Source of the DNA: Naegleria gruberi
Lineage: Eukaryota
Strand: one strand, 5' to 3'
Length of the DNA: 64,000 nucleotides
Assembly: GCA_000004985.1 (NCBI GenBank)
Contig: GG738848.1
A program made the position numbers and the translations under genes. Within the stretch, counting starts at the first letter, position 1. Every line of letters starts with the position of its first letter. This document shows, piece by piece, positions 7,269 to 58,368 of the stretch. Under the pieces are notes generated by a model. It had not been told where the DNA came from. It worked only from the letters and a program-made list of their open reading frames with translations, and did no database searches.

Positions 7269-9309
7269 TTACATTGAATACTGGAAATAGGTAGCTCCAT
7301 GTTTGTGGTAAAGTTCTCGTTTGTATGGATCTCCCAAAATGGAGAAGGCATAGTTGATTTGTTTGAATCTTTCAATAATTTCTTCTGTGGTCCATTCCTC
7401 ATCGTTTGTTTTGGTTTGTGTTGTAGATGATTCTTCTTGTTCTGGTTCGCCTGAGATTTCAGATGATGAGAGAACAGATTTTCTTTTACTGGAATTGAAC
7501 AAATCAGGATGGTAAATCATAGCAAGCTGAGACAGTTAGGTTGAGTGAATTTAAAATACTTGCCTTCTTATATTGAGATCGAATTTCTTCTTGAGTATAC
7601 AAGCTAAACTTTTGGGCATCAAGTTCTAAAAGAGAGTATAAATCACAACCCTTACTGATTTCAATGGCAAGGGCAGTATTACCATCTGATGGGTTAGCAC
7701 AATACTTCCAGGCATTCGAGTAAATTTTTTGTAATGGCTTGTTGGAAATATACTTGTTGTGAACGTGGACAGCAAACTTCTTATGGTGCTCCTTATGTAA
7801 TAAAGGTTTGTAGTATGTCTCTGTGCTAGCTCCAAATGCAGCAAATAAAGAAAAGAAAAATCCATAAATTAATGAGCTATAGATGTCAATAAATGGGAAT
7901 AATGAGGAAATAATACCCCAACCAGAGTAAACTCCTGTAAAGTATGATAAAAATAATTTAGGGAAACTGTATGGTACATATCCTGTCACATAGCTTGTAT
8001 CAATGCCGTTTGTAAATGAGTGGAACGTATGTTCACCATGAGACAAGTTTCTAACCTTATGTCTAATATGGAATGGACTGAAAAGTTTAAGGGTATGTGG
8101 AAAATTGAGAACATCCTGTTTGACATAGACAGGAATATAAATCATTTCCTTTTTGTGTAATTTGAAATCAGTTTTTTCAATATTAAAATTAGAAAGTTGA
8201 ATAGTTGGAGAATCGAATAAAGTTCGTTCTTCTGTGGAGGTTATAGTTTTGGAGATAATTTGTTTCATGCTTTCTTGGAGTTTGTGAGGTACTGTATTAT
8301 CCAAAGCCAATGACCAAGATGTTTCCCAATCGACAGTATAATAATCGACAGAATAATCTCTTTTAAATGATGATCTCTTGAACCATGATTTGATATCATC
8401 CCACAAATTTTGATACCATTTCAATTTGTAATTAATTTTTGAAATATAGGTAGGGTCTGTGAGGTATTTCTTATCTATTTTATATGCAATTCTATTGATA
8501 TACCTTCTCTCAAAAGAAGTTGATGCATATATTGTGGCATAATCATCAACCATCGTTTCAGTACCCAATAATTTAGTTGGCTCGACATGTTCGTCCAATT
8601 TGATATGATCTATAATACAGCTAATAGTTATTTCTGAGCTTGTAAGAGTTTCAATTTTGAAGGTATGGTCTTGAATTTGAAATTGATTTTTCAGAATTGT
8701 TTTCATAATATCAGCAAGTTCTTTCAATCTGCTTTCATCTTCCAATTTTAACTCTTTCAAAATTTTCTTTTGATTCTTTTGCTTTTGATGTACATCTCTT
8801 TGTGAAAAATCCTCAGGATTAGCGGTCAATATGAGAGGATCCTTTTCAGGAATAACTTCCTCAATTTCTCCGAACAAATTGGTCAATAATTCTCTTTGTT
8901 TCCTTGGATCGATAGTAATCCTTGTTTTTACTTTATATCCACAAGCATCACCATATTGAAAAACCCACAATGGAACATAAACTTGTTCAGGATACACATC
9001 TGGTTTGTACCAACTTCTTGGTCCATAGAATCTATTTTTCTGATGAGCATACTCCACAAAAGCATCACTAGCATCCTCAGGTGATGCTCTAAATTCACTA
9101 GCTACTTTCAACTTGATTTCTCCAAGATCTTGCTGCTCATCTCGGGTGATCGTCTTTGTTCGGAATGAAAAATTCCTTGTTGCACTATTTTCCACAATTT
9201 TATAATTCTTCTTATTTGATGATAGGCTTGATGATAACAGCAGTAGTGATGTTATCTTTTTCCTAGTACTATTACCAGCAGGGACAACAAGCCTTTTAAG
9301 TGATGGCAT
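7269..9309 (-). CDS. Large membrane-associated protein with a C-terminal DnaJ (J) domain. Two exons, joined by a GC-AG intron at 7527..7563.
   Basis: ORF 7504..9309 ends ..DLYSLLELDAQKFSLYTQEEIRSQYKK, which is the start of a J-domain. A 37-nt intron follows on the minus strand (GCAAGTATT...GTCTCAG). It joins in frame to ORF 7269..7520 (LAMIYHPDLF...FKQINYAFSILGDPYKRELY). The result is a complete J-domain with the HPD motif. Hydrophobic segments (GWGIISSLFPFIDIYSSLIYGFFFSLFAAFGA) lie upstream of the J-domain. Confidence 0.65.
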
Positions 9310-30817: not shown

Positions 30818-32779
30818 ATGGCTGAACTCACACCACAACAAGTTCTCGGTCTCTACTCTGCCATTAATTTGGCTTTAGAAGCTGAACAAGAAACCTTGAA
30901 GACTTTGGAAGAAGCTGCTCAAGAAAGGAGAGGAGATGAAATTATTGCTAAAGCCGCTACTGAAGCTGGTATTAACATGGACGAAGCTGAAATTGTTAAC
31001 CAAGGCTTGAGAGTTGGTGAATTCAACGAAGAAGTCGCTGCTGCTATCAAGAAGTTCAATTCAATCAGACCACAATCCAAGAATGCTAAGAAGAAGCTCG
31101 AAAAGAGAATTTCTTCCATGCAAAAGAAGTTGGAAAAGAAGTTGGAAAAGCAAAAGGCTCAAGGTGATGAAAAGATCGATGAAGACAGCTTGGATCCAAG
31201 CAAGTACTATGAAATCAGAAAGAAGAATATTTTGGAATTGGAAAAGGAAGGTTTTGATGCTTTCCCACACAAATTCAATGTTGACACTACTGTTCCAGAA
31301 TTCATCAAGAAGTACTCTCACTTGGCTGCTGAACAACGTGTTCAAGAAGAAACTGTTGCCCTTGCTGGTAGAATTATTACTAGTAGACCAACTGGTAAAT
31401 TAGTTTTCTATCACATTAGAGCTGAAGGTGAAGATCTCCAAGTTATGAGTGGTATCAGTGATTATGCTGAAGGTGAAGATGCTTTCAAGAAGGTTCACTC
31501 TGTTCTCCGTAGAGGTGATATTATCGGTATTAACGGTTTTGCTGGTAAGAGTAAGAAGGGAGAATTGTCCATCATTCCAACCAAGATTACTTTGTTGACA
31601 CCATGTTTCCACATGTTGCCAAAGGAACATTACGGTTTGACCAACCAAGATACCAGATATAGACAACGTTATTTGGATTTGATCATGAATAAGAAGTCAA
31701 GAGATATCTTTGTCACTCGTAGTAAGATTATTGCTCACTTGAGAACTTTCTTGAATGAAAGAGGTTTCCTTGAAGTTGAAACTCCAATGATGAACATGAT
31801 TCCAGGTGGTGCTAATGCTAGACCATTCACTACTTATCACAATGATTTGGAAATGCTTTTGTATATGCGTATTTCTCCTGAATTGTACTTGAAGCAATTG
31901 GTTGTCGGTGGTTTGGAAAGAGTTTACGAAATTGGTAAGAACTTCAGAAATGAAGGTATTGATTTGACTCACAATCCTGAATTCACTGCTTGCGAATTCT
32001 ATATGGCCTATGCTGATTACAATGATTTGATGAAGATTACTGAAGAATTGTTGAGTGAAATGGCTCTCGTTGCCAATGGAAAGGATCCAAAGAACTTGCC
32101 ATCAGTTGTTCCAGATGAATGGTATCATAGAACTTTCACTATGCCACACACTAATAAGGATGTTGTTGTCAACTTCAGACCACCATTCAAGAGACTTCCA
32201 ATGATTTCAAGTATTGAAGAAAGACTTAACGTCAAGATCCCAACTCAATTGGATACTGAAGAAACCAGACTTTTCCTTGTTGATCTCCTCAAGAAGAATA
32301 AGGTTGATTGTTCTCCACCAATGACCACTGCCAGAATGTTGGATAAGTTGGTTGGTGAATATCTTGAACCAGAATGTATTAACCCAACTTTCATTACTGA
32401 ACATCCACAAATCATGTCACCACTCGCTAAGTGGCATAGAGATAACAAGGTCCTCACTGAAAGATTCGAATTGATGATCATCGGTAAGGAAGTCTGTAAT
32501 GCTTACACTGAATTGAACCAACCTTTCATCCAACGTGAAAGATTCGAAGATCAAGTTGCCCAAAAGGATGCTGGTGACAATGAAGCTCAATTCATGGACG
32601 AAGATTTCTGTAAATCACTTGAATATGGTTTGCCACCAACTGGTGGTTGGGGTATTGGTTTGGATCGTTTGACTATGATTCTCTCCAATAACTACAATAT
32701 CAAGGAAGTTATTCTCTTCCCTGCTCAAAAGCCAGAAGATAACACACCAACTGAAAAGCCAGAAGAAGCCAAGCAATAA
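30818..32779 (+). CDS. KARS1: Lysyl-tRNA synthetase (class II)
   Basis: It is intronless and 653 aa. It has an OB-fold anticodon-binding region (AGRIITSRPTGKLVFYHIRAEGEDLQVM). It has class II motifs: motif 1 (FLEVETPMMNMIPGGANARPF), motif 2 (RISPELYLKQLVVGGLERVYEIGKNFRNEG..THNPEFT.CEFY) and motif 3 (GLPPTGGWGIGLDRLTMIL). Confidence 0.95.
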   Translation: MAELTPQQVLGLYSAINLALEAEQETLKTLEEAAQERRGDEIIAKAATEAGINMDEAEIVNQGLRVGEFNEEVAAAIKKFNSIRPQSKNAKKKLEKRISSMQKKLEKKLEKQKAQGDEKIDEDSLDPSKYYEIRKKNILELEKEGFDAFPHKFNVDTTVPEFIKKYSHLAAEQRVQEETVALAGRIITSRPTGKLVFYHIRAEGEDLQVMSGISDYAEGEDAFKKVHSVLRRGDIIGINGFAGKSKKGELSIIPTKITLLTPCFHMLPKEHYGLTNQDTRYRQRYLDLIMNKKSRDIFVTRSKIIAHLRTFLNERGFLEVETPMMNMIPGGANARPFTTYHNDLEMLLYMRISPELYLKQLVVGGLERVYEIGKNFRNEGIDLTHNPEFTACEFYMAYADYNDLMKITEELLSEMALVANGKDPKNLPSVVPDEWYHRTFTMPHTNKDVVVNFRPPFKRLPMISSIEERLNVKIPTQLDTEETRLFLVDLLKKNKVDCSPPMTTARMLDKLVGEYLEPECINPTFITEHPQIMSPLAKWHRDNKVLTERFELMIIGKEVCNAYTELNQPFIQRERFEDQVAQKDAGDNEAQFMDEDFCKSLEYGLPPTGGWGIGLDRLTMILSNNYNIKEVILFPAQKPEDNTPTEKPEEAKQ

Positions 32780-32833: not shown

Positions 32834-34090
32834 TTACGTATCAAGCCAAGAAACGTGGCCAGCAATTACAAATTTGCCTGGAAGTCCTTTACCAGGGGAT
32901 GGAGAAAGAATTGTCATTGTCTTATTTTCATGGTCAATCTTTGTTACATGGATTACTCCATAAATATTTCTTGTTAAAACATCTTCCAATTTATCTGCAA
33001 GAGAAACAGCCAAGATACTGAACTTGGTGATTTCACTATGGTCAACTTGTTTAACTTCAACTGGATTATAACTGGATTTAGCACCAATTGGTAAAGCACT
33101 CAATGGAGCCTGCCATTCACCACCAATTCTGCAAAGGGTGAAATCCTCAAATCTTACAACTATGGAGTGAGGACTCAAAGATTTATGCATTCCATAGAAA
33201 TACTGCTTAGTTTTAAGTTGATTTGCAGTGGTTCTTTGCTCTTTTGATCTATTAATTACACCAGGATTTTTCTTCAAACGAGTGACAACAGCTTTTGTAT
33301 CTTTCAAATCTTTCTTTAAATTATTTGTAAGTCTGTCATCATCCATAACAATTACGTGGTTAATTTGCATAGTTTTTACAATATATAATAACAATTGAAT
33401 GCCAGAGCTGTCAACCCAACTTCCTGTATTAACAATAAATCCTCCTTCCTCATAGAATTGATCAACAGAACATTTCCTATCAATCATCTTTTTAGTTTGT
33501 TCCACAATCTTTTTGAAATGATCAACATTTTTATCAGGAGTTGTTTCACCATAGAAATAAGTTAAAGGAGAACATAATGAGAATTCATCCTCAATATCAA
33601 TTGGTTCATATGCATTCTTAGCAACCATACTGATGGTTCCAGGGAATGTAATATCATTCTGACCACAATCTAAATCAACAAATATCACTTTTTTACCAAC
33701 TCTAACAGCATAATTAACTAAAATTTTAGCAACTGATGATTTTCCTGTATCAGCAGGACCAACAACAAGAACTCTTGGAGGATTATTAACAGGTCCTCTC
33801 TCCATATTAATTTTATCATGAAATTCCAAATATTCCTTCATTGGTGTTTCTGATCCGACATAGTTAGAAATATTATCCTTTCCTTTAGAACTCTCCATTT
33901 CGATTGTTGCTCCATGATATGTAAATATTGCTCCATTTCTTCCACCAATAAAATTATAATCTCTATTCAAAGCCAATTCGGAACCAAAAAATTCAGCTTT
34001 TCCTTCCACTAATTTTATTTTAATACTTTCATCAAAGCCTACTTCAAATCTCAACTCTTCTCCTGCCTTTAATTCCACTCGGTGTTCCAT
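32834..34090 (-). CDS. CLP1: mRNA cleavage/polyadenylation factor Clp1 (P-loop polynucleotide kinase family)
   Basis: It is 418 aa. The N-terminus is Clp1-like (LKAGEELRFEV). The P-loop is VLVVGPADTGKSSVAKILVNYAVRVGKKVIFVDLDCGQN. The C-terminal Clp1 domain is colinear. Confidence 0.9.
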   Translation of the reverse strand: MEHRVELKAGEELRFEVGFDESIKIKLVEGKAEFFGSELALNRDYNFIGGRNGAIFTYHGATIEMESSKGKDNISNYVGSETPMKEYLEFHDKINMERGPVNNPPRVLVVGPADTGKSSVAKILVNYAVRVGKKVIFVDLDCGQNDITFPGTISMVAKNAYEPIDIEDEFSLCSPLTYFYGETTPDKNVDHFKKIVEQTKKMIDRKCSVDQFYEEGGFIVNTGSWVDSSGIQLLLYIVKTMQINHVIVMDDDRLTNNLKKDLKDTKAVVTRLKKNPGVINRSKEQRTTANQLKTKQYFYGMHKSLSPHSIVVRFEDFTLCRIGGEWQAPLSALPIGAKSSYNPVEVKQVDHSEITKFSILAVSLADKLEDVLTRNIYGVIHVTKIDHENKTMTILSPSPGKGLPGKFVIAGHVSWLDT

Positions 34091-34278
34091 TTTTTTTGTA
34101 TTTGATTAAAATAATATTAATTCAATTTTATTGAACATGATGCAAATAATATCATTACAAAATAATTGAATGTATCAAAATTTATATCAATTTATCAATT
34201 ATATTGATTGTTTGATAACATGTAGTATTATTTCTAATGATTTCTTCATCAATTTAAATCAAAATCATCATTAAAAAA

Positions 34279-37200
34279 ATGAGTAAACAACTTTTTCGGA
34301 TTTGTAGCAACAATTCTTCATCAGCAGTTGCAACGAGGAATGGTAGTGTGCAGAAGAAAGGCTTGTTGATGACGGTTCGGGATCATGATGTCGGTAATAG
34401 TCAGAGAGGAAACTATCATACCTCTTTTAAAAATCAAGCAAAAATTGGATTATTTGGAGATATTCACTTTCAAGATGTTGGTTTGGAGAGAGTGGTTGAG
34501 ACTGGAGAGTGGATTACAAAAGAGTTTGAAAATCAAAAGGTGGATTATATTGTGTGTATGGGTGATGTGTTAAATACTCGAGAGACTGTTAGTATTAAAG
34601 CACAGAGTTCAGCTCTCCAATTTTTTGATAAATTGTCTCAAAAGATACCGAAAGAAATTCACATTATTTGTGGTAATCATGACTTGAATTTAAAGTATGA
34701 TACAAAAGTGAGCTCCTTGGATGCACTTGGTATGTCAAGTGTATCATCTAATAGAATTTATCTTCATAAGCATATTACAGAAACAGAGTTTGATGGAAAG
34801 AAAGTAGTATTAATTCCATATTATGAGGATACTTCAATAATCAGGGATTGGGTTGTTAAAAAAATCACAAAAGAACCACTTGATAATTCGATTGGGTTCT
34901 GCCATATGGCGATTAATGGAGCAATTCAACGATATCAAAAAGATAGTAAGGAAAATGTTTATTCTAGGAGTTATGATGACCATTCTGGAAAGAATATTTT
35001 GGTTGAAAAGAAAAAAGGAGACAAGAAAAAGGATACAGGAAGCGATATGGATTTGCCTGAGGAAGGATCCAAAGTACCAAAATTTTTAACTCAATTTCAA
35101 AGAGTGTTTTCAGGTCACTTTCACCATCATCACTTTTGTGATAAGAAGGTAGCATACGTTGGTGCACCTATGCAACATCACTTTGGAGATTCAGGTGATG
35201 CATCTAGAGGAGTAGTAATTTATGACACTGAAACTGATGAAATACAATTCGTTCAAAATCCTGAGTGGGATAAATTCAGAATACTACGATTGAGTAAGGA
35301 GGAAGACCTTGGAGAAATCACAGAATATAAGGGAAAGCACGTATCTGTTATTTATGAAAGTTTCGATTTAGTTCCCCAAGTTATACAAGAAAAGTTATTG
35401 AAGGCTGGAGCAAGTTCTGTGAAAAAACACTCTGTGGTAGTGAGAAAGGTTCAATCAGCATTATCTAGTGATGATCGTCAAAAGGATGACGAGAAGGCGT
35501 TCACTGGTCAAATGTTTGAGGATTTCGTTGTAAAATATGTAAAACAGTATGCTAATCTATCATCTATGGGATATGATTCTCAATTCAGTGATAATATAAT
35601 CAAAATTGGAAAGGAAATTATTTCAGAATCAACAAAGGAAGATAACAATAATCTAAATGTTGGTGATACGTTCAAAGCTAATATCAAGAGTATCACAATC
35701 CAAAATTTCTTGGGTGTTCAAGGATGTATTACCTTTGAAATCAAGAATATGCAAAATGGAATTTGGTTTTTGGAGGGATCAAATGGTGCTGGTAAAAGTA
35801 CAATTTTAGAGGCACTAACATGGTGTCTTTTTGATAAGTTTTTAAGATCTGATATGAAGGCAGATTTTGTTGTCAATGACCAAGTCAAAAAGGATTGTTT
35901 GGTCAGAGTAGATTTTGAATCAGGTTATTCTATTGAAAGATTCAGAAAGTATACAAAGACTGGAGAAAAGGAATTACCAGATGAATTAATTAGCAAATCT
36001 GCTCCAGAAAGAAAAGGAACAGGTGTTAGAGTTTTTAATCAAGGAACATATCTCAGCGATTTTGAAAAGGGTTCAACAAGAGATTCCCAGACTTCTATTG
36101 AGTCTCTTACCGGAATTAATTTTGATATGTTCACCAAAGCTATTGTTGTGGGAGACAATGCTGTAAATTTCTTAACCTCTGATGCAAAACAAAGAAGAGA
36201 TTTAATTGAAGATTTATTGGGGTTGTATCTTTTTGATAGCTATTTATCTAAGGCAAGGGAAAGAAAAAAGAGTCTTATTGAAAAAGTATATTCCATGAAA
36301 TCAGAACAGGAAAAAACAGAGTCTACCATTGTTTCCTTGGAAGAATCTCTGAAAAAGTGGAAAGAGCAATTATCACAAATTGATTCTGCTATTTCTGAAA
36401 AAGAAAACGATTATGCCGAATCAGTAGAATTGTGTAATGAATTAGTGGCTAAAAAGAAATCAGCAGAGAATAATTGGAAACAATTCCAGAAACTCAATAT
36501 TGCCAGGCAAAATTACAACAATCTCTTGAAGAAAAATGATCAATTAGAAGTCAGAATTAATACCCTCGAAAAGAATCTAGAAAAATTAGCAGAGGAAAAG
36601 GGGTCATTCTTTACTGACGATATCACAGATGTTAAACAATTGGAGAGATATTTTGAGGAGAATATTAATGAAATCAGATCTAATTTGAAGAGATTTTCAC
36701 AAACTTTGATGGAGAGCAATGTAGAATTAAATGTTTCTAAAGAGAAATTAGAAAAGTTGATGGACCTTTCTGAAAACAATGAATGCCCATATTGTGAGCA
36801 ACCTATCAAGGAACACACTCACGAGAAAATTCTTGAAGAAAAAAGAACCATTGAAGCTAGGGTTGAAGAGTTGACACAAAATATTGAGCATATTAATTTT
36901 ACTATTGCAGATTTGCAAGAGGAAATGGATGATTTGGAACGCTCTAAAAAATCCACAATGCAATCTCTTACCAAACTTGAAAATACAATTATCCTAAACC
37001 AGAAGGAGAAGGCAAATCTTGAAAATGATCTGGTCAATATTAGATCATCTATTGATTCTTCAGAAAAGGAATTGCAAAGTTTATCTAATGAATCTGAGGA
37101 CGTTGAGGCTACTCTTAATAGCTTGGTATCCCAAGAAAGAAAGGCAATGCAAAAAAAGTACGAATTGGATGCCAACATTAAATTCTCAAAGAAGAGAAAA

Positions 37201-37803
37201 TTAGAACTTGAACGAGACATAAAATCTAGTGAAGATTCTTTGGAAAATCTCAAGATAGATTATGAAACTATTTCTACAAGCTACAAGGATTATGAGCAAG
37301 ATTTTTCTGCTCTTGAATTTTGGGAAAAGGCTTTTGATAAAAAGTCAAAGAAATCAACCAAAGATGATTTTGAAACAATGAGATCATTCTTATTGAACAA
37401 ATCTATTGAAGATCTCAATAATATTTTGGATGAATATTCTAAACTTGTTGGAAGTGATATGTTAAAGATTACATTTGACTCTGATTTAATGATCAAAGAG
37501 GATTATGGTAAACGTTCTTCTGGACAACGTAAAAGAAATCACTTGATGATTCATTTTGCATTGTTCGAATTGGTTAGGCAGAGATCTAGATTCAGAAGCA
37601 ATTTCCTAATGTTGGATGAAGTATTTGATGCCTTGGATGTAAATGGGCAAGCACAAGTACAGCAAGTCATTGAGATGATTTCCACCAAGATTGATAAAGT
37701 ATTTGTAATTTCTCACTCAACCTCAAACATGGAACTGAGAAAAAAGGCAATTGTTGCCACCATGTCAGATGAGGGATCAAAGTACAAACTAACCTATAGA
37801 TAA
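34279..37803 (+). CDS. Single-chain fusion of an SbcD/Mre11-type calcineurin-like phosphoesterase (N-terminal about 330 aa) and a complete SbcC/Rad50-type SMC-like ATPase with a CxxC zinc hook. Intronless, 1174 aa.
   Basis: Phosphoesterase motifs are in order: GDIHF (motif I), CMGDVLN (II), ICGNHD (III), and VFSGHFHHHH (V, GHxH). Next comes an ABC/Rad50 head: Walker A (LEGSNGAGKSTILEAL), about 450 aa of coiled coil with a central CPYCEQPI hook, a signature-like KRSSGQRKR motif, Walker B (FLMLDEVFDALD) and an H-loop (VFVISHS). The N-terminal 40 aa are basic and S-rich (MSKQLFRICSNNSSSAVATRNGSVQKKGLLMTVR), which is presequence-like. Confidence 0.75.
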   Translation: MSKQLFRICSNNSSSAVATRNGSVQKKGLLMTVRDHDVGNSQRGNYHTSFKNQAKIGLFGDIHFQDVGLERVVETGEWITKEFENQKVDYIVCMGDVLNTRETVSIKAQSSALQFFDKLSQKIPKEIHIICGNHDLNLKYDTKVSSLDALGMSSVSSNRIYLHKHITETEFDGKKVVLIPYYEDTSIIRDWVVKKITKEPLDNSIGFCHMAINGAIQRYQKDSKENVYSRSYDDHSGKNILVEKKKGDKKKDTGSDMDLPEEGSKVPKFLTQFQRVFSGHFHHHHFCDKKVAYVGAPMQHHFGDSGDASRGVVIYDTETDEIQFVQNPEWDKFRILRLSKEEDLGEITEYKGKHVSVIYESFDLVPQVIQEKLLKAGASSVKKHSVVVRKVQSALSSDDRQKDDEKAFTGQMFEDFVVKYVKQYANLSSMGYDSQFSDNIIKIGKEIISESTKEDNNNLNVGDTFKANIKSITIQNFLGVQGCITFEIKNMQNGIWFLEGSNGAGKSTILEALTWCLFDKFLRSDMKADFVVNDQVKKDCLVRVDFESGYSIERFRKYTKTGEKELPDELISKSAPERKGTGVRVFNQGTYLSDFEKGSTRDSQTSIESLTGINFDMFTKAIVVGDNAVNFLTSDAKQRRDLIEDLLGLYLFDSYLSKARERKKSLIEKVYSMKSEQEKTESTIVSLEESLKKWKEQLSQIDSAISEKENDYAESVELCNELVAKKKSAENNWKQFQKLNIARQNYNNLLKKNDQLEVRINTLEKNLEKLAEEKGSFFTDDITDVKQLERYFEENINEIRSNLKRFSQTLMESNVELNVSKEKLEKLMDLSENNECPYCEQPIKEHTHEKILEEKRTIEARVEELTQNIEHINFTIADLQEEMDDLERSKKSTMQSLTKLENTIILNQKEKANLENDLVNIRSSIDSSEKELQSLSNESEDVEATLNSLVSQERKAMQKKYELDANIKFSKKRKLELERDIKSSEDSLENLKIDYETISTSYKDYEQDFSALEFWEKAFDKKSKKSTKDDFETMRSFLLNKSIEDLNNILDEYSKLVGSDMLKITFDSDLMIKEDYGKRSSGQRKRNHLMIHFALFELVRQRSRFRSNFLMLDEVFDALDVNGQAQVQQVIEMISTKIDKVFVISHSTSNMELRKKAIVATMSDEGSKYKLTYR

Positions 37804-38199
37804 ACTCTTTTAAATAAAACATGTTAGTTTCGCTCTACTCTAATAAACAATAAGAGACCAACCATTTAACTTCTTGCACCAGCCATCATAAACAGTTGTT
37901 AATAATACAGCTCAATAATAAGCTCTGGCCACTAATAGCCCTAAGGCCTAAGGTTCTTCCTTGTAATGTTACAGTTATTACGGCTCGTATTATCATTTTA
38001 ATGGACCTCATGTTTATTGAATGTTCTTCATAAAAACAAGATAAATTGGAACAGAGTTTTTGTTAAATTCAATGTACATTATATATAATTCTCAATTCTT
38101 CTAATTGCATCTTCCAATTATTACTTATTAATTAATAATTCTATTATTATTATCTTTAGAGAACTCCTATTTGGTCTTGAAATTTTTCATTATCAAAAA

Positions 38200-39324
38200 A
38201 TGATGCACAGAGATTTTGATTATGCAAATAAGGGTGAGTTTAAAGATTGTTATTTTGCTTAGTGTTATCATTATCTTTTATGATTGAAATAGTGATTATT
38301 ATAGGAGATAGTGCAACAGGTAAGTGATGATAAGAAGAGTTTGTTATTAAGTATTCAATTAAAAATTGATGATATTACAATTATTTATGATTTAATTAGG
38401 AAAATCATCATTGATGAATGTAAGGAGTCTTGTTGAATAATAAGGATTAATTTCATCACATAGAGGTTTTGTTATGATAAATTTAATCCTAATTTTGTAT
38501 ATACCATCGGAATGGAAATGGGCCATAAAACAATCAGTTTGAATGATAAGAAAGTTAAGGTGACTGTCTTTGATACGTATGTAGATTGAAATATAAATTC
38601 AGTTTATAGCAAGGAATTTAAAGTGCTGGACAAGAACGATTTAGGAGTATAGTAAGTAAAATTGAAAAACAAGGCCAATACTGATAATGGATGAACGCAA
38701 TGATAGACACAAAGTTACTATAGAGGAGCTGATTCAGCCATTGTAGTTTATGATGTAACCTCAATAGATACATTCAATCATGTGAGAGGATGGCTGAAGG
38801 ATTTGTACAATTACACAGATGGTAATATTAAGAAAGTTTTATTGGGAAATAAGTGTGATCAAAAGGATGCTAGAAGAGTTTCCTATGAAGAAGGTAAAAA
38901 GTTAGCCGATGAATATGGAATTACATTCTACGAGACTGTATGTTATCATCATTAACTTTGTGAATTGTTTTTAATCATGAATTAGAGTGCATTTGATGGA
39001 ACGAATGTGGAGAGTGCATTCTTATCTGTTGTGAGTAAGTTTCAATTAACAATGTTAAATAGTTTATAGATAATTGAAACATTTCATTGAAATTTTAATT
39101 GAAATTCATGACAATTACAATTTTTCAAATTGAATGGAATGTGAAATATAAACTGTATTCAAACAGAGGAAAAGGAAATTAAGCAACCACTGTACAATGC
39201 ACATATCAAAGAGGAAATATTATTATCAGAACATGGACTAGGTGATGACAATAGTAGTGAAGAAGAAAAAGTTAAAACAAAATCGAAAAAGACATCATCA
39301 TCATCCTCTTCATGTAATTGTTAA
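38200..39324 (+). CDS. Rab-family small GTPase with seven exons, six short introns and a C-terminal CXC prenylation motif
   Basis: The hand-spliced exons give MMHRDFDYANK|VIIIGDSATG|KSSLMN|RFCYDKFNPNFVYTIGMEMGHKTISLNDKKVKVTVFDT|AGQERFRSI|TQSYYRGADSAIVVYDVTS..GNKCDQKD...|SAFDGTNVESAFLSVV|..SSSSSCNC*. The G1 (GDSATGKS), G3 (DTAGQE) and G4 (NKCD) boxes are intact. Introns are GTGAGT/GTAAGT/GTATGT...AG and 41-80 nt long. No ORF longer than 60 aa exists here, so this gene is invisible in the ORF track. Confidence 0.8.
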
Positions 39325-39400
39325 TTCAATAATACCACTGATAATGAAACTATTGTAAAGTATTCCATAAAAACCAAATGATTATAATCTAACGTGTGAA

Positions 39401-40943
39401 GTGCTGCAGATGTTTGCTGTCAATTCAATTTCAAATTTAAAAAAAATGTTTCAAAGTCTTTCACAATCAAAGGTTGGACTTTTTGCCAACATTTTAAAAA
39501 AAACAGTTGTTTCGGGAGATGATACCTTTAAATACTCTGAATTATCAAACACACAAAATGTGCTAAACAAAAATCCATTCCTTTCCGATATTTTCTCAGT
39601 TCCTGGTTTGACACGATTAAATCAAATTGTGACAGGTATCATTGGTGTATTTTTAGGAGTTTGTTTAACATTTCTAATGGGAACAATTCTAATTCAACTT
39701 TTATTCTACAAATTATTTGCTGTTGTAAGTAATTATCATTGGTGATCATGATTTCTAATAATTTCTAATAGCTTTTCGGATTGTTGATGATTTTGGTTTC
39801 TACTATTTTTATTCTAAACGTTGCAGTGACACCAGTAAGTAAAATAACCAAATATCCACCAATAATTAACTAACTGTCATGATCTTTTAGTATGATGAAG
39901 CATCTGCAACTAGAAAATTAGTTGCATTTATCATTTTTGGTTTATGCATATTTTGTGGATTGTTGTGTGTTTTCTTGTATGGAACTGATTGGACAGAAAA
40001 TGCCAAATCAATTATTGTCATTCGTCAAGAAAATTATACAACTCAAACTAAATCTAAATTAGGAAAAACTGGAGCTCAGTGGAAAGTTTTGTGGACTTTT
40101 TTAATTGGAATTTCAATTTTCTTTTTAATTATTTATTCATGTGCTGAAATAATTACTACGGGAATATTCCAATGTAAATGTTTTTCCTTTTTATGGTATA
40201 GAAGACCAACGTGTAATTATGTTTACTTTATGGCATGTGCATTGTTTTCCAGTGTTATCATTTCAAGTGCATTCACATTATTTATTAGTATTCAAAAAGA
40301 TTCAAATGTTTCAATTGATTCTTTAATTGGAGATTCAAATCCTAACTTTATTAGTTTGAGTAATATGCTTTATGGAATGTTAATGTTGAAACAATTGTAT
40401 TTGGTTGTTCCATTCGGTGTTGTCTTTGGTCCAATTCTTGCACTCGTTTTCCAATTCAATTATTTGAAAGATTGGGTTGACTATCAAAATTTGAGAAATG
40501 AAAGTACTCATAATGGAAAAAGCGTTTTAATCAAGACAACTAGTTTGGATTTGAGTGACGATGATGAAGATAGTCCAATTGACATTACTAAAATTACTCC
40601 TGAAAATGGTGATGCATTCTTCAATCAGTCAATTGAACATCAATCCTCTTCTCCAACACATAAGCAAATTTCATTCAAGAGTAGACACCAAAACAATACC
40701 ACTATCATTGCAGGAAATGTGAATACCAATAGCCCAACATCAAATATTAACTCATCACCAGTTATTGGAGGATTCACAGTTTCAGGAAGTAGTAATCCAT
40801 TAGCTGCCACCACAACTCCAAACACTCCTGTTCAAGTTAATGTTGTGGTTGAGCAAGAGTCAACTAATCCACTTCAAACAAATGATTCATCTGTGCTTAT
40901 TACAGAAAAGGATGATATTGTTTTTGATAATGAGGATTTGTAA
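39401..40943 (+). CDS. Four-TM membrane protein (PMP22/claudin-like topology) with an acidic S/T-rich C-terminal tail. Three exons (39401..39724, 39772..39834, 39891..40943).
   Basis: ORF 39401..39745 ends at a GTAAGT donor. A 63-nt micro-exon (LFGLLMILVSTIFILNVAVTP) follows. A second GTAAGT..TTTTAG intron joins in frame to ORF 39960..40943. There are four hydrophobic helices. The family assignment is tentative. Confidence 0.5.
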
Positions 40944-57060: not shown

Positions 57061-58368
57061 TTATAATTTGTTTATCAAATTTACAATTCCAGTAACGGTT
57101 CTCATGTAATGATCAGGTAAAAAGTCAATAAACAAGTGGAAACTATGAAGTGGAATATTTTCTCTCTGAATACTGACACTGGAACTGGTTGCTTTCAAAT
57201 TATCAATAACAGTTTCAATTTCATGACTAAATCTCTCTCTGCCAGAGTATGAAATAAACATTCCCTTTGGCAGAACAGATGAAACTCTTTGCCATTGATC
57301 TGCTGTCCACAGATATGGAGAGAATTGTTTGACTCTTTCCTCTTCACCAAGACCACATGGAATACCATTTAGTTTCCACTCTCTCAAATCAGTATTTCTC
57401 ACAAGTCTATCCTGATGAAATAAATCTGATAATTCTGGTGTTGCCATTTGTAAATCACACCAAGGACTCAACAAGATAGCACCTTTTAGGGCTGTCATGT
57501 ATTTCCCTTCCGTTGATGAATCCAATTGAGACAGTTTATCTGCCAGTAACCAACACAAATTAGCCCCAGCACTCTCGCCAATGACATAAATTTCAGAATG
57601 ACCCTTTTCTTCCACTAGCCATTTCAAAGATCTTAATGCTTCCTCAATTATTCCTTCAATTTCTCCCAATGGAAAAGTTGTGTATTCCAATCCTAATAAG
57701 TCGAACTTATGCTCTGAGCACCATCGTTCATGAATGTAACATAATTCTCCAACACCTGTCACATAGGCGCCACCATGGAAATGTAAGATGGCGACCTTTC
57801 TGCTTTCATTCCTTGCAAAATTAAAGAAAAAACTCTTTACAGAACTTCCCTTTAAGGTAAAATCAGGGAATTCATCAGGTTGATTAAAAGGTCCTGCATT
57901 CAAAGCAAATATAGCATTACTTGATTTCTTCTTCATTTTGGCCAAGTTTTCAGCAATTTGTTCTTTTGTATATGGTTTCAAATCCTTCGGAAGAGCTTTT
58001 AAATTATACTTTAATGGACCAAAAACAGAGTCAGCTACTCTAATGGTGGCCAATTCTCTACAATCCAATCCTTGCAGTACAATGGCTCTATATAATTCTG
58101 CCTTCTCTTTATCATTTAAATTTTCCTTACTCGACAACTCTTGAATAAGCTGAGGATGGTTTGGTTTACGAATTGAAATATCAGAACACTCCAACCAATA
58201 GAAATAATTATAGATAGAGTAGGAAATCATCGCCATTAAACTCCTCTTATAAACTCTCTTGCCGATTATTAAGAGGGTTGCTACTGTGGCTGTAAGACCA
58301 ACTACAAAGAACATTTGATGACCTTTTTTCTTGTTTTTTTTAATATTAATAAAAGCCATAAAGTTCAT
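57061..58368 (-). CDS. Alpha/beta-hydrolase fold-3 esterase/lipase (hormone-sensitive-lipase/AADAC-like) with an N-terminal membrane anchor
   Basis: The oxyanion-hole motif is HFHGGAY. The nucleophile elbow is GESAGANL (GxSxG). The N-terminal TM is FFVVGLTATVATLLIIG. It sits 27 nt downstream of tRNA-Ala on the same strand. Confidence 0.75.
   Translation of the reverse strand: MNFMAFINIKKNKKKGHQMFFVVGLTATVATLLIIGKRVYKRSLMAMISYSIYNYFYWLECSDISIRKPNHPQLIQELSSKENLNDKEKAELYRAIVLQGLDCRELATIRVADSVFGPLKYNLKALPKDLKPYTKEQIAENLAKMKKKSSNAIFALNAGPFNQPDEFPDFTLKGSSVKSFFFNFARNESRKVAILHFHGGAYVTGVGELCYIHERWCSEHKFDLLGLEYTTFPLGEIEGIIEEALRSLKWLVEEKGHSEIYVIGESAGANLCWLLADKLSQLDSSTEGKYMTALKGAILLSPWCDLQMATPELSDLFHQDRLVRNTDLREWKLNGIPCGLGEEERVKQFSPYLWTADQWQRVSSVLPKGMFISYSGRERFSHEIETVIDNLKATSSSVSIQRENIPLHSFHLFIDFLPDHYMRTVTGIVNLINKL

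Follow-up and report, generated by a model that had tools for sequence, protein, structure and literature searches.

Can the nuclease and the ATPase of an Mre11-Rad50-type enzyme be carried by one chain in a eukaryotic cell, and if so, where would such a protein have come from and what would it do there? This question is raised by a gene located at 34279..37803 on the + strand of the 64,000-nucleotide stretch of Naegleria gruberi DNA analyzed here (contig GG738848.1, assembly GCA_000004985.1; hereafter the window). The SbcCD enzymes of bacteria and the Mre11-Rad50 enzymes of archaea and eukaryotes (6s6v, 3qg5, and 7zr1) have the same folds, catalytic motifs, coiled coil, and hook as the product of this gene, but are built from separate polypeptides. 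Based on its open reading frame (ORF), profile matches, and full-length fused orthologs, the gene can be assigned as an intronless, 1174-aa single-chain fusion of an Mre11/SbcD-like nuclease to a Rad50/SbcC-like ATPase, and its product is very probably an active enzyme.

A single chain spanning both halves

The gene is a single, uninterrupted ORF of 1174 codons in which the ORF listing shows one stop codon, the terminal one at 37801-37803. An in-frame TAA at 34255-34257 lies upstream of the ATG at 34279, making this ATG the first possible start. A preliminary description of the locus, made from its letters without database searches, had read it as one uninterrupted 3.5-kb ORF holding all the parts in canonical order, and this reading stands, with each motif at the position given below (all features of the gene lie on the + strand).

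The fusion junction can be placed at residues 462-466 (35662..35676) by mapping the proteins of split phage pairs onto the Naegleria sequence. In five of six pairs, SbcD ends and SbcC begins at positions corresponding to residues 462/463 or 465/466, and in three of these five the two ORFs abut or overlap. Two complete genes have thus simply been joined, the end of one to the start of the other, and no linker domain was added. In an AlphaFold2 model built on 18 homologs (mean predicted local distance difference test score, or pLDDT, of 74.8), the connector consists of approximately eight low-confidence residues (457-464) between a helix-loop-helix and the Rad50 N-lobe. In the Thermotoga complex, the C-terminus of Mre11 is reported to lie ~28 Å from the N-terminus of Rad50, a distance that could be bridged by 9-12 residues, and the connector seen here fits this published expectation for fused proteins (PMC3175470).

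Two further Naegleria species encode full-length fused orthologs (N. lovaniensis C9374_014510, 60% identity; N. fowleri XP_044557140.1, 59% identity), and others were identified in Physarum, Pyxidicula, Salpingoeca, Creolimax, and the fungi Ascodesmis, Peziza, Rhizina, Discula, and Geopyxis. Transcripts are the source of several of these sequences, which supports a single mRNA. The N. lovaniensis gene consists of a single exon, and the order lysyl-tRNA synthetase (LysRS), Clp1, fused gene is conserved there. A profile search of 1.84 billion cluster representatives returned 6625 proteins at E ≤1e-30, and in at least 79 of the best 150 cluster representatives, the nuclease motif is followed by a Walker A on the same chain.

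Two adjacent genes may appear as one through a sequencing or assembly error, or may be parted in vivo by an intron or stop that escapes notice. The concern is a reasonable one at this locus, as nuclease and ATPase genes lie next to each other in the same order in many phages, where a one-base error could merge them, and 42 of 49 IMG/VR loci are split. Against this, more than 20 eukaryotic lineages show the same uninterrupted fusion in assemblies and transcriptomes obtained independently, the cluster representatives just described hold both parts in one chain, and the junction region aligns with no gap or stop. The preliminary description had named an intron, a frameshift, or a stop between the two parts as the finding that would overturn its reading, and none is present in the continuous frame. 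We consider an artifactual fusion exceedingly improbable, and the nuclease and the ATPase are, as judged from these sequences, truly one polypeptide.

Nuclease half

The Mre11/SbcD phosphoesterase core covers residues 55-330 (34441..35268), as delimited by motif coordinates, conservation in an alignment of 18 sequences, and Foldseek matches to Mre11 chains. Motif searches located nuclease motif I (GDIHF, residues 60-64, 34456-34470), motif II (GDVLN, residues 95-99, 34561-34575), motif III (GNHD, residues 132-135, 34672-34683), motif IV (His209, within 34897-34920), and motifs V/VI (GHFHHHH, residues 279-285, 35113-35133). Residues D61, H63, G95, D96, G132-D135, H209, G279, H280, and H282 are invariant in the 18 aligned sequences. 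Residues 55-282 match the Pfam Metallophos model with 38.3 bits (cut-off 21.5), and a match to the SbcD-like PHROG family phrog_100 (E 1.7e-34) reaches residue 458. Foldseek comparison to the PDB returned the Mre11/SbcD chains 3qg5_C (E 9e-12), 3thn, 2q8u_A, and E. coli SbcD 6s6v_A, all with a probability of 1.00, in alignments of 360-440 columns with target TM (template modeling) scores of 0.57-0.67. The phrog_100 and Foldseek matches bear out the earlier identification of the N-terminal part as SbcD/Mre11-like rather than as an unrelated phosphoesterase.

Beyond the core, residues 331-385 (35269..35433) form a β-rich domain, with predicted strands at 333-338, 354-359, and 380-385, that is included in the Foldseek alignment span and is a candidate Mre11 capping domain. 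It is followed by a flexible linker of low confidence at residues 386-414 (35434..35520), where pLDDT falls below 50 at 385-410 and conservation is poor, and then by a helix-loop-helix at residues 415-456 (35521..35646; predicted helices 415-425 and 434-456), which is still within the phrog_100 match. These two predicted helices just before the join are a candidate equivalent of the Rad50-binding helix-loop-helix of Mre11, an element that is retained in the published fusions (PMC3175470). The core also contains a Lys/Asp/Glu-rich, lineage-specific insertion between motifs IV and V at approximately residues 233-262 (34975..35064), which occupies alignment columns 401-520 and has a pLDDT below 50 at 236-262. 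The insertion is found in Naegleria, is much longer in the homolog P0010, and is absent from phage proteins and most other orthologs.

ATPase half

The Rad50/SbcC ATPase N-lobe spans residues 465-650 (35671..36228), based on matches to Pfam AAA_23 (residues 471-711; 57.9 bits, cut-off 27) and SMC_N (469-546) and on a PDB sequence match to E. coli SbcC (6s6v_C). It contains the Walker A motif GSNGAGKST (residues 500-508, 35776-35802) and the Q-loop Gln604 (36088-36090). An ascending coiled-coil arm follows as one continuous predicted helix at residues 651-833 (36229..36777), leading to a zinc-hook apex at residues 834-844 (36778..36810), which is recognized by the break between the long helices and by its conserved cysteines (CPYCEQPI at 836-843, with CPYC at 36784-36795). 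The descending arm at residues 845-1018 (36811..37332) is modeled as helices 845-934 and 943-1018. The two arms, of ~180 residues each, are antiparallel in the model and flank CPYC at 836-839. The C-lobe at residues 1019-1174 (37333..37800) was assigned by its motifs, its conservation, and a weak match to Pfam SbcC_Walker_B at 1072-1131. It holds the signature RSSGQRKR (residues 1079-1086, 37513-37536), the Walker B and D-loop segment FLMLDEVFDALD (residues 1109-1120, 37603-37638), and the H-loop VISHST (residues 1143-1148, 37705-37722). The ATPase elements named in the preliminary description, from the Walker A head through the CPYCEQPI hook to the signature, Walker B, and H-loop, were each recovered in place.

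In the 18-sequence alignment, G500, N502, G503, G505, K506, S507, Q604, S1080, G1082, D1113, E1114, and D1120 are invariant, while C836 and C839 of the hook and H1146 of the H-loop are kept in at least 90% of the sequences. The half matches the SbcC-like family phrog_77 with E 1.1e-77, and Foldseek comparison to the PDB returned 7zr1_D (E 1e-16), 5dny_D, 3av0_B, and 7yzp_C, all with a probability of 1.00. By alignment, the catalytic motifs of both halves are all intact and conserved.

Comparison with published fusions and with canonical Mre11-Rad50

The preliminary description had taken a covalent Mre11-Rad50 fusion to be structurally novel. This is not the case, as such fusions were published in 2011 by Yoshida, Claverie and Ogata (Virol J 8:427; PMC3175470), and jumbo phages and giant viruses have annotated ones as well. 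The 2011 report centers on Mimivirus R555 and lists twelve further fusions, from Bacillus phage 0305phi8-36, plasmids of Clostridium kluyveri and Deferribacter, other Firmicutes, Physcomitrella, Phaeodactylum, two Micromonas, Dictyostelium, and Polysphondylium, with members including A9RK34, B7FXD6, C1N0B1, C1FJU6, D3AVR3, A7KV18, and Dictyostelium discoideum Q8T663 in addition to R555. In these proteins, as in that of Naegleria, a short connector links an N-terminal Mre11-like nuclease, with capping and helix-loop-helix regions for which the Naegleria protein has the candidates described above, to a C-terminal Rad50-like ATPase that includes the coiled coil. The published fusions likewise fall outside the canonical clades, are affiliated with viruses, and occur sporadically in eukaryotes, whose separate canonical Mre11 and Rad50 genes are retained, and a viral origin with lateral spread was proposed for them (PMC3175470). 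The Naegleria gene fits this class in every respect tested, with membership judged by the published description of architecture.

Members from Naegleria and other Heterolobosea, Physarum, Arcellinida, a choanoflagellate, an ichthyosporean, and fungi are absent from the 2011 paper, which contains zero mentions of Naegleria and does not address subcellular targeting (PMC3175470). What is added here is this subfamily and its hosts, a close phage-like clade, and a recurrent presequence-like extension.

Naegleria species possess MRE11 and RAD50 as separate genes (PMC9928731), and the fused protein is thus an additional system. Sequence likeness to cellular SbcC is weak, a PDB sequence search having matched only the N-lobe to E. 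coli SbcC, with E 2e-7. As it is a single polypeptide whose best profiles are of phage gp46/gp47 type, the fused protein can be distinguished at the sequence level from the canonical nuclear complex (MRN/MRX), as the preliminary description had also held.

Viral relatives

Phage profiles outscore cellular ones for both halves, with phrog_77 at E 1.1e-77 and phrog_100 at E 1.7e-34 as opposed to 66.9 bits for the cellular sbcc model TIGR00618, and the eukaryotic and phage fused homologs match the same two families. These families correspond to the phage gp47/gp46-type proteins (PHROG 100/77; T4 gp46/gp47), which in many phages follow the same D-then-C order. They are mostly encoded by two genes, as in the split IMG/VR loci noted above and in Asteriusvirus, versus the one gene seen here. 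Fused single phage genes also exist, as in the Xanthomonas jumbo phage Xoo-sp13 (QDJ96467.1, 1110 aa), at seven of the 49 IMG/VR loci, and on one 87-kb phage-like contig. Searches with tblastn gave matches in 2428 phage records, with 22-26% identity to proteins of cultured phages. The SbcC homologs of T4-like cyanophages are ~575 aa in length compared to ~710 aa for the ATPase part of the Naegleria protein, and the phage proteins lack both its N-terminal extension and its insertion at 233-262.

The closest non-eukaryotic relatives belong to a clade of fused proteins from uncultured phage-like contigs (P0013, P0014, P0021, P0038-P0043, and the 220-kb IMGVR_UViG_3300049855_000348), with 29-35% identity over ~95% of the length at E 1e-111 to 1e-134. 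They share the same junction and family-specific motifs, are 1163-1173 aa long (1109 aa in P0041), and begin at motif I. Their genes lie on contigs with a G+C content of 0.51-0.56, in dense co-directional modules with a DnaB-like helicase, a Toprim primase, a FEN-type exonuclease, and a RuvC-like resolvase.

Comparison with predicted viral structures (BFVD) retrieved fused proteins from giant viruses as well as from phages of Listeria and Tenacibaculum. Proteins annotated as fused "DNA repair exonuclease SbcCD" in Tupanvirus, Harvfovirus, Yasminevirus, Catovirus, Tetraselmis virus 1, Pyramimonas orientalis virus, and Bodo saltans virus (~1200-1400 aa) have the same single-chain layout, and their structural matches are full-length (1200-1450 columns, E 1e-23 to 1e-40). 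At 11-15% identity, they are not the nearest to the Naegleria protein by sequence.

A scan of 185,579 bacterial and archaeal species genomes with the family motifs and with P0021 returned no relative, and a cellular bacterial donor for the subfamily was rejected on this basis. One group of fused proteins starting with MWLLIADLHF was considered as a possible giant-virus group and this was also rejected, as it has no close IMG/VR relative (21-28% identity) and its contigs look eukaryotic, with an IBR domain and sparse, fragmented gene calls. Protein P0115, from the same tree clade as this group, originates from the fungus Geopyxis. On two contigs of the group, L252 (9001-13065) and L253 (3811-7233), no long uninterrupted ORF other than the fused one is present, and the latter, as called, has no N-terminal extension.

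Phylogeny and direction of transfer

All trees were constructed by neighbor joining (NJ) with a simple distance. The eukaryotic proteins and the close phage-like clade group together in 100 of 100 bootstraps with the whole alignment as well as with the nuclease or the ATPase half alone. A phylogeny of each half had been proposed as a check on its grouping; both halves give this same result, indicating that they share one history and that the fusion is older than the split. In a 92-sequence tree, this ingroup is set apart from every other viral sequence with 98% support. On the strength of the profile matches and groupings, the wider ancestry of the fused protein is viral.

Within the ingroup, the phage-like clade (L005/L006, L007, L010, L090, L096, and L097) is nested among the eukaryotes as sister to a Pyxidicula-containing group, with 100% support. 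The two have in common a one-residue deletion (GDAGD-RG) and a QFNFGD motif. The nesting, as seen in these simple NJ trees, could reflect phage capture of a eukaryotic gene, repeated transfers, or an artifact of the tree. A protein from Dictyostelium dimigraforme (P0030, 1100 aa) is related to the Naegleria protein at only E 1.2e-11 and groups with other fused phage proteins (L001, L023, and L084; 1047-1094 aa). Its position in a different fused clade together with phage sequences suggests at least two separate entries of the fused gene into eukaryotes.

The N-terminal extension

Ahead of its first conserved strand, the Naegleria protein carries an extension of 54 residues (34279..34440) that is basic, rich in Ser, Thr, and Asn, and a candidate mitochondrial presequence. 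Its assignment as such is based on its composition, a pLDDT of 25-31, and a lack of sequence conservation. Residues 1-34 contain six Lys/Arg and no Asp/Glu (net charge +6), the first acidic residue being at position 35, and the hydrophobic moment of the N-terminus calculated over 11 residues is 0.61. Residues 1-51 are disordered in the AlphaFold2 model, and the extension is unconserved in the alignment. This agrees with the earlier view of the first ~35 residues as basic, acid-poor, and presequence-like, and the feature is now seen to recur in eukaryotic orthologs. Most of these possess extensions of 21-184 residues, usually with a net charge of +4 to +12 (+31 in Physarum), that are often free of acidic residues before motif I. 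The motif R-x-[FYL]-[STAH], which is of the type cut by mitochondrial processing peptidase (MPP), is present in 13 of 26 eukaryotic N-termini. The phage-like homologs have no extension and start directly at motif I (e.g., MQLGIFSDIHF).

Among 13 other N-termini encoded in the window, most are acidic or near-neutral, and two (7504-9309 and 57061-58368) are basic and acid-poor as well. The first of these is a 601-aa ORF on the - strand whose N-terminus, MPSLKRLVVPAGNSTRKKITSLLLLSSSLSSNKKN, has a net charge of +7, remains free of acidic residues until position 40, and is presequence-like too.

Because a basic, acid-free, non-conserved extension recurs in distant eukaryotes and is absent from the phage homologs, it shows the pattern to be expected of an acquired import signal, and it is probably one, as judged by the heuristic measure of its composition.

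Proposed function and alternative roles

We favor, with somewhat better than even confidence, a functional single-chain, virus-related Mre11-Rad50 enzyme that is located in mitochondria and acts on mitochondrial DNA (mtDNA). The proposed enzymatic steps are drawn from established knowledge of Mre11-Rad50/SbcCD and of T4 gp46/gp47, and the substrate from the N-terminus. Two chains would form a homodimer equivalent to Mre11(2)Rad50(2), with dimerization of the Mre11 parts, ATP-dependent engagement of the Rad50 heads, and zinc-mediated joining of the hooks. Through the ~8-residue connector, each helix-loop-helix would dock in cis, at the base of the coiled coil of the same chain. ATP binding and hydrolysis would license both 3'-5' exonucleolytic and endonucleolytic cleavage of DNA ends, hairpins, and blocked ends. 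If the extension acts as a mitochondrial presequence, the substrate would be mtDNA, and break resection and hairpin opening may feed recombination-dependent mtDNA replication and repair, as gp46/gp47 do in phage T4.

A number of observations weigh against this proposal. The Naegleria protein is without a canonical R-2/R-3 cleavage motif, and there is little or no extension in the Discula group, in Creolimax, or in the MWLLIADLHF group; targeting may not extend to the whole family, or these genes may have been called too short. When the supplements on the N. gruberi mitochondrial proteome (PMC8134430) were searched by keyword, there was no match to Rad50, SbcC, or Mre11. The function of Mimivirus R555 is described as "currently unknown", with hypotheses only, and none was proposed for the eukaryotic fusions (PMC3175470). 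The protein also misses the NCBIfam cut-offs, scoring 66.9 bits versus 478.5 for sbcc (TIGR00618), 24.7 versus 77.65 for sbcd (TIGR00619), and 49-55 bits versus 700-1087 for Rad50 models (NF041034 and others).

Papers on the mitochondrial proteomes of Andalucia and Acanthamoeba make no mention of Mre11, Rad50, or SbcC. Our literature search yielded no report of a mitochondrial SbcCD or Rad50, no paper citing the N. fowleri or N. lovaniensis accessions, and no function or location for natural Mre11-Rad50 fusions in any eukaryote.

The same active nuclease might instead work outside mitochondria, in the nucleus or cytoplasm, as a back-up for the processing of ends and hairpins or as a defense against foreign linear or hairpin-ended DNA such as that of giant viruses, with the extension being a disordered tail. 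We regard this as the main alternative, though an unlikely one. It would account for the missing MPP cleavage motif in the Naegleria protein and for those eukaryotic relatives in which a clear presequence is missing. Giant viruses of amoebae and protists carry fused homologs of their own, and hosts keep their canonical genes, so that the fused copy could serve another purpose (PMC3175470). The ATPase part also matches models of the Lamassu defense protein LmuB at E 2.4e-30; this match, however, reaches 104 bits, far under the 263.5 bits of the phage SbcC-like profile, and Lamassu has no Mre11-type partner. The similarity found with PADLOC is only of a generic SMC-like kind (LmuB/PbeC/JetC) and weaker than that to the phage SbcC profile, and identification of the locus as a defense system was rejected. 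The recurrence of an acid-free, basic extension in distant eukaryotes and its absence from phage homologs argue for mitochondrial targeting over a disordered tail, as does the character of the 13 other N-termini in the window, mostly acidic or near-neutral with the two exceptions named above.

More broadly, and as a tentative and rather doubtful extension of the mitochondrial proposal, the family could represent a mitochondrial single-chain Mre11-Rad50 that descends from viruses and is widespread, though its retention is patchy. In heteroloboseans, amoebozoans, choanoflagellates, ichthyosporeans, and some fungi, it would initiate recombination-dependent mtDNA replication and repair. Added to this would be a nested phage clade that re-acquired the gene from a eukaryote, or else independent uptake of the gene from such phages by several eukaryotes. 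The fused enzyme, if this is true, would join phage-type RNA polymerase and Twinkle as another virus-derived part of the mitochondrial DNA machinery. Many protists and fungi would then be expected to use a T4-like, resection-initiated mode of mtDNA replication and repair. What chiefly sets the eukaryotic copies apart from their viral relatives is the added import-type N-terminus, which points to mtDNA as substrate, and organellar targeting is potentially a new aspect of the fused gene. The family is also a clear case of gene flow between viruses and cells, in which the gene may have passed either way between eukaryotes and the jumbo-phage-like clade. A 1174-residue single-chain enzyme may in addition be handy for biochemistry and cryo-electron microscopy, as its stoichiometry is fixed and no co-expression is required.

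Genomic setting

The genes near the fused gene encode LysRS, Clp1, coatomer epsilon, a GRIP-domain protein, and a leucine-rich repeat protein, and the surroundings are ordinary nuclear DNA of a Naegleria-type amoeba. The LysRS protein is fully identical (100%) only to a 2.2-kb ENA metagenome contig, followed by matches of 88% in a Logan assembly, 82% in N. lovaniensis, and 73% in Willaertia, which places the DNA in the Naegleria clade; a look-up of the exact fused protein sequence gave no record. The G+C content averages ~33% over the window with no compositional step at the fused gene, which has a G+C content of 0.325-0.329 and a third-position G+C content (GC3) of 0.29 in comparison to a GC3 of 0.22-0.36 in its neighbors.

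The preliminary description had placed the gene between intron-containing neighbors and had taken its lack of introns as compatible with horizontal acquisition or a retro-origin. Neither point holds up. The upstream neighbors, LysRS (30818-32779) and Clp1 (32834-34090), are each full-length within a single ORF, so that intronlessness is not usable as a sign of recent transfer or retro-origin; the nearby coatomer-epsilon gene is a single ORF as well, composition and GC3 match those of the surroundings, and the position is kept in N. lovaniensis. Interruptions resembling GT...AG are seen only downstream.

These features also bear on whether the locus might be a recent viral or phage-derived insertion or a contaminant, that is, a functionless remnant with a frame that is still open. 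The nearest non-eukaryotic relatives are on phage-like contigs, the distribution of the family is sporadic (also PMC3175470), and the gene has no introns, all of which such a remnant could explain. It is nevertheless flanked on the same contig by LysRS, Clp1, and coatomer epsilon, it resembles these neighbors in G+C content and GC3, and in addition to its conserved position in N. lovaniensis, it has orthologs of 59-60% identity in two other Naegleria species. Its catalytic residues do not vary between lineages, other species have full-length transcripts, and a eukaryote-specific N-terminal extension has been gained. We consider a functionless remnant very unlikely. In Naegleria, the fused gene is stably present in the nuclear genome at a syntenic position, and several eukaryotic supergroups have fused orthologs.

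The region downstream of the fused gene (38150-39950) is without a long ORF and contains short coding-like pieces flanked by GT...AG-like sequences (e.g., gtgagt at ~38215), making it the sole neighbor that fits the intron-containing remark. On the other side, the fused gene is separated from the divergently transcribed Clp1-like gene, whose ORF ends at 34090, by an AT-rich intergenic region of 188 bp (34091..34278), which holds the in-frame TAA. In N. lovaniensis, an additional 738-aa gene with no Pfam match (L171, 3275-5491) lies between Clp1 and the fused gene, where the window has only these 188 bp.

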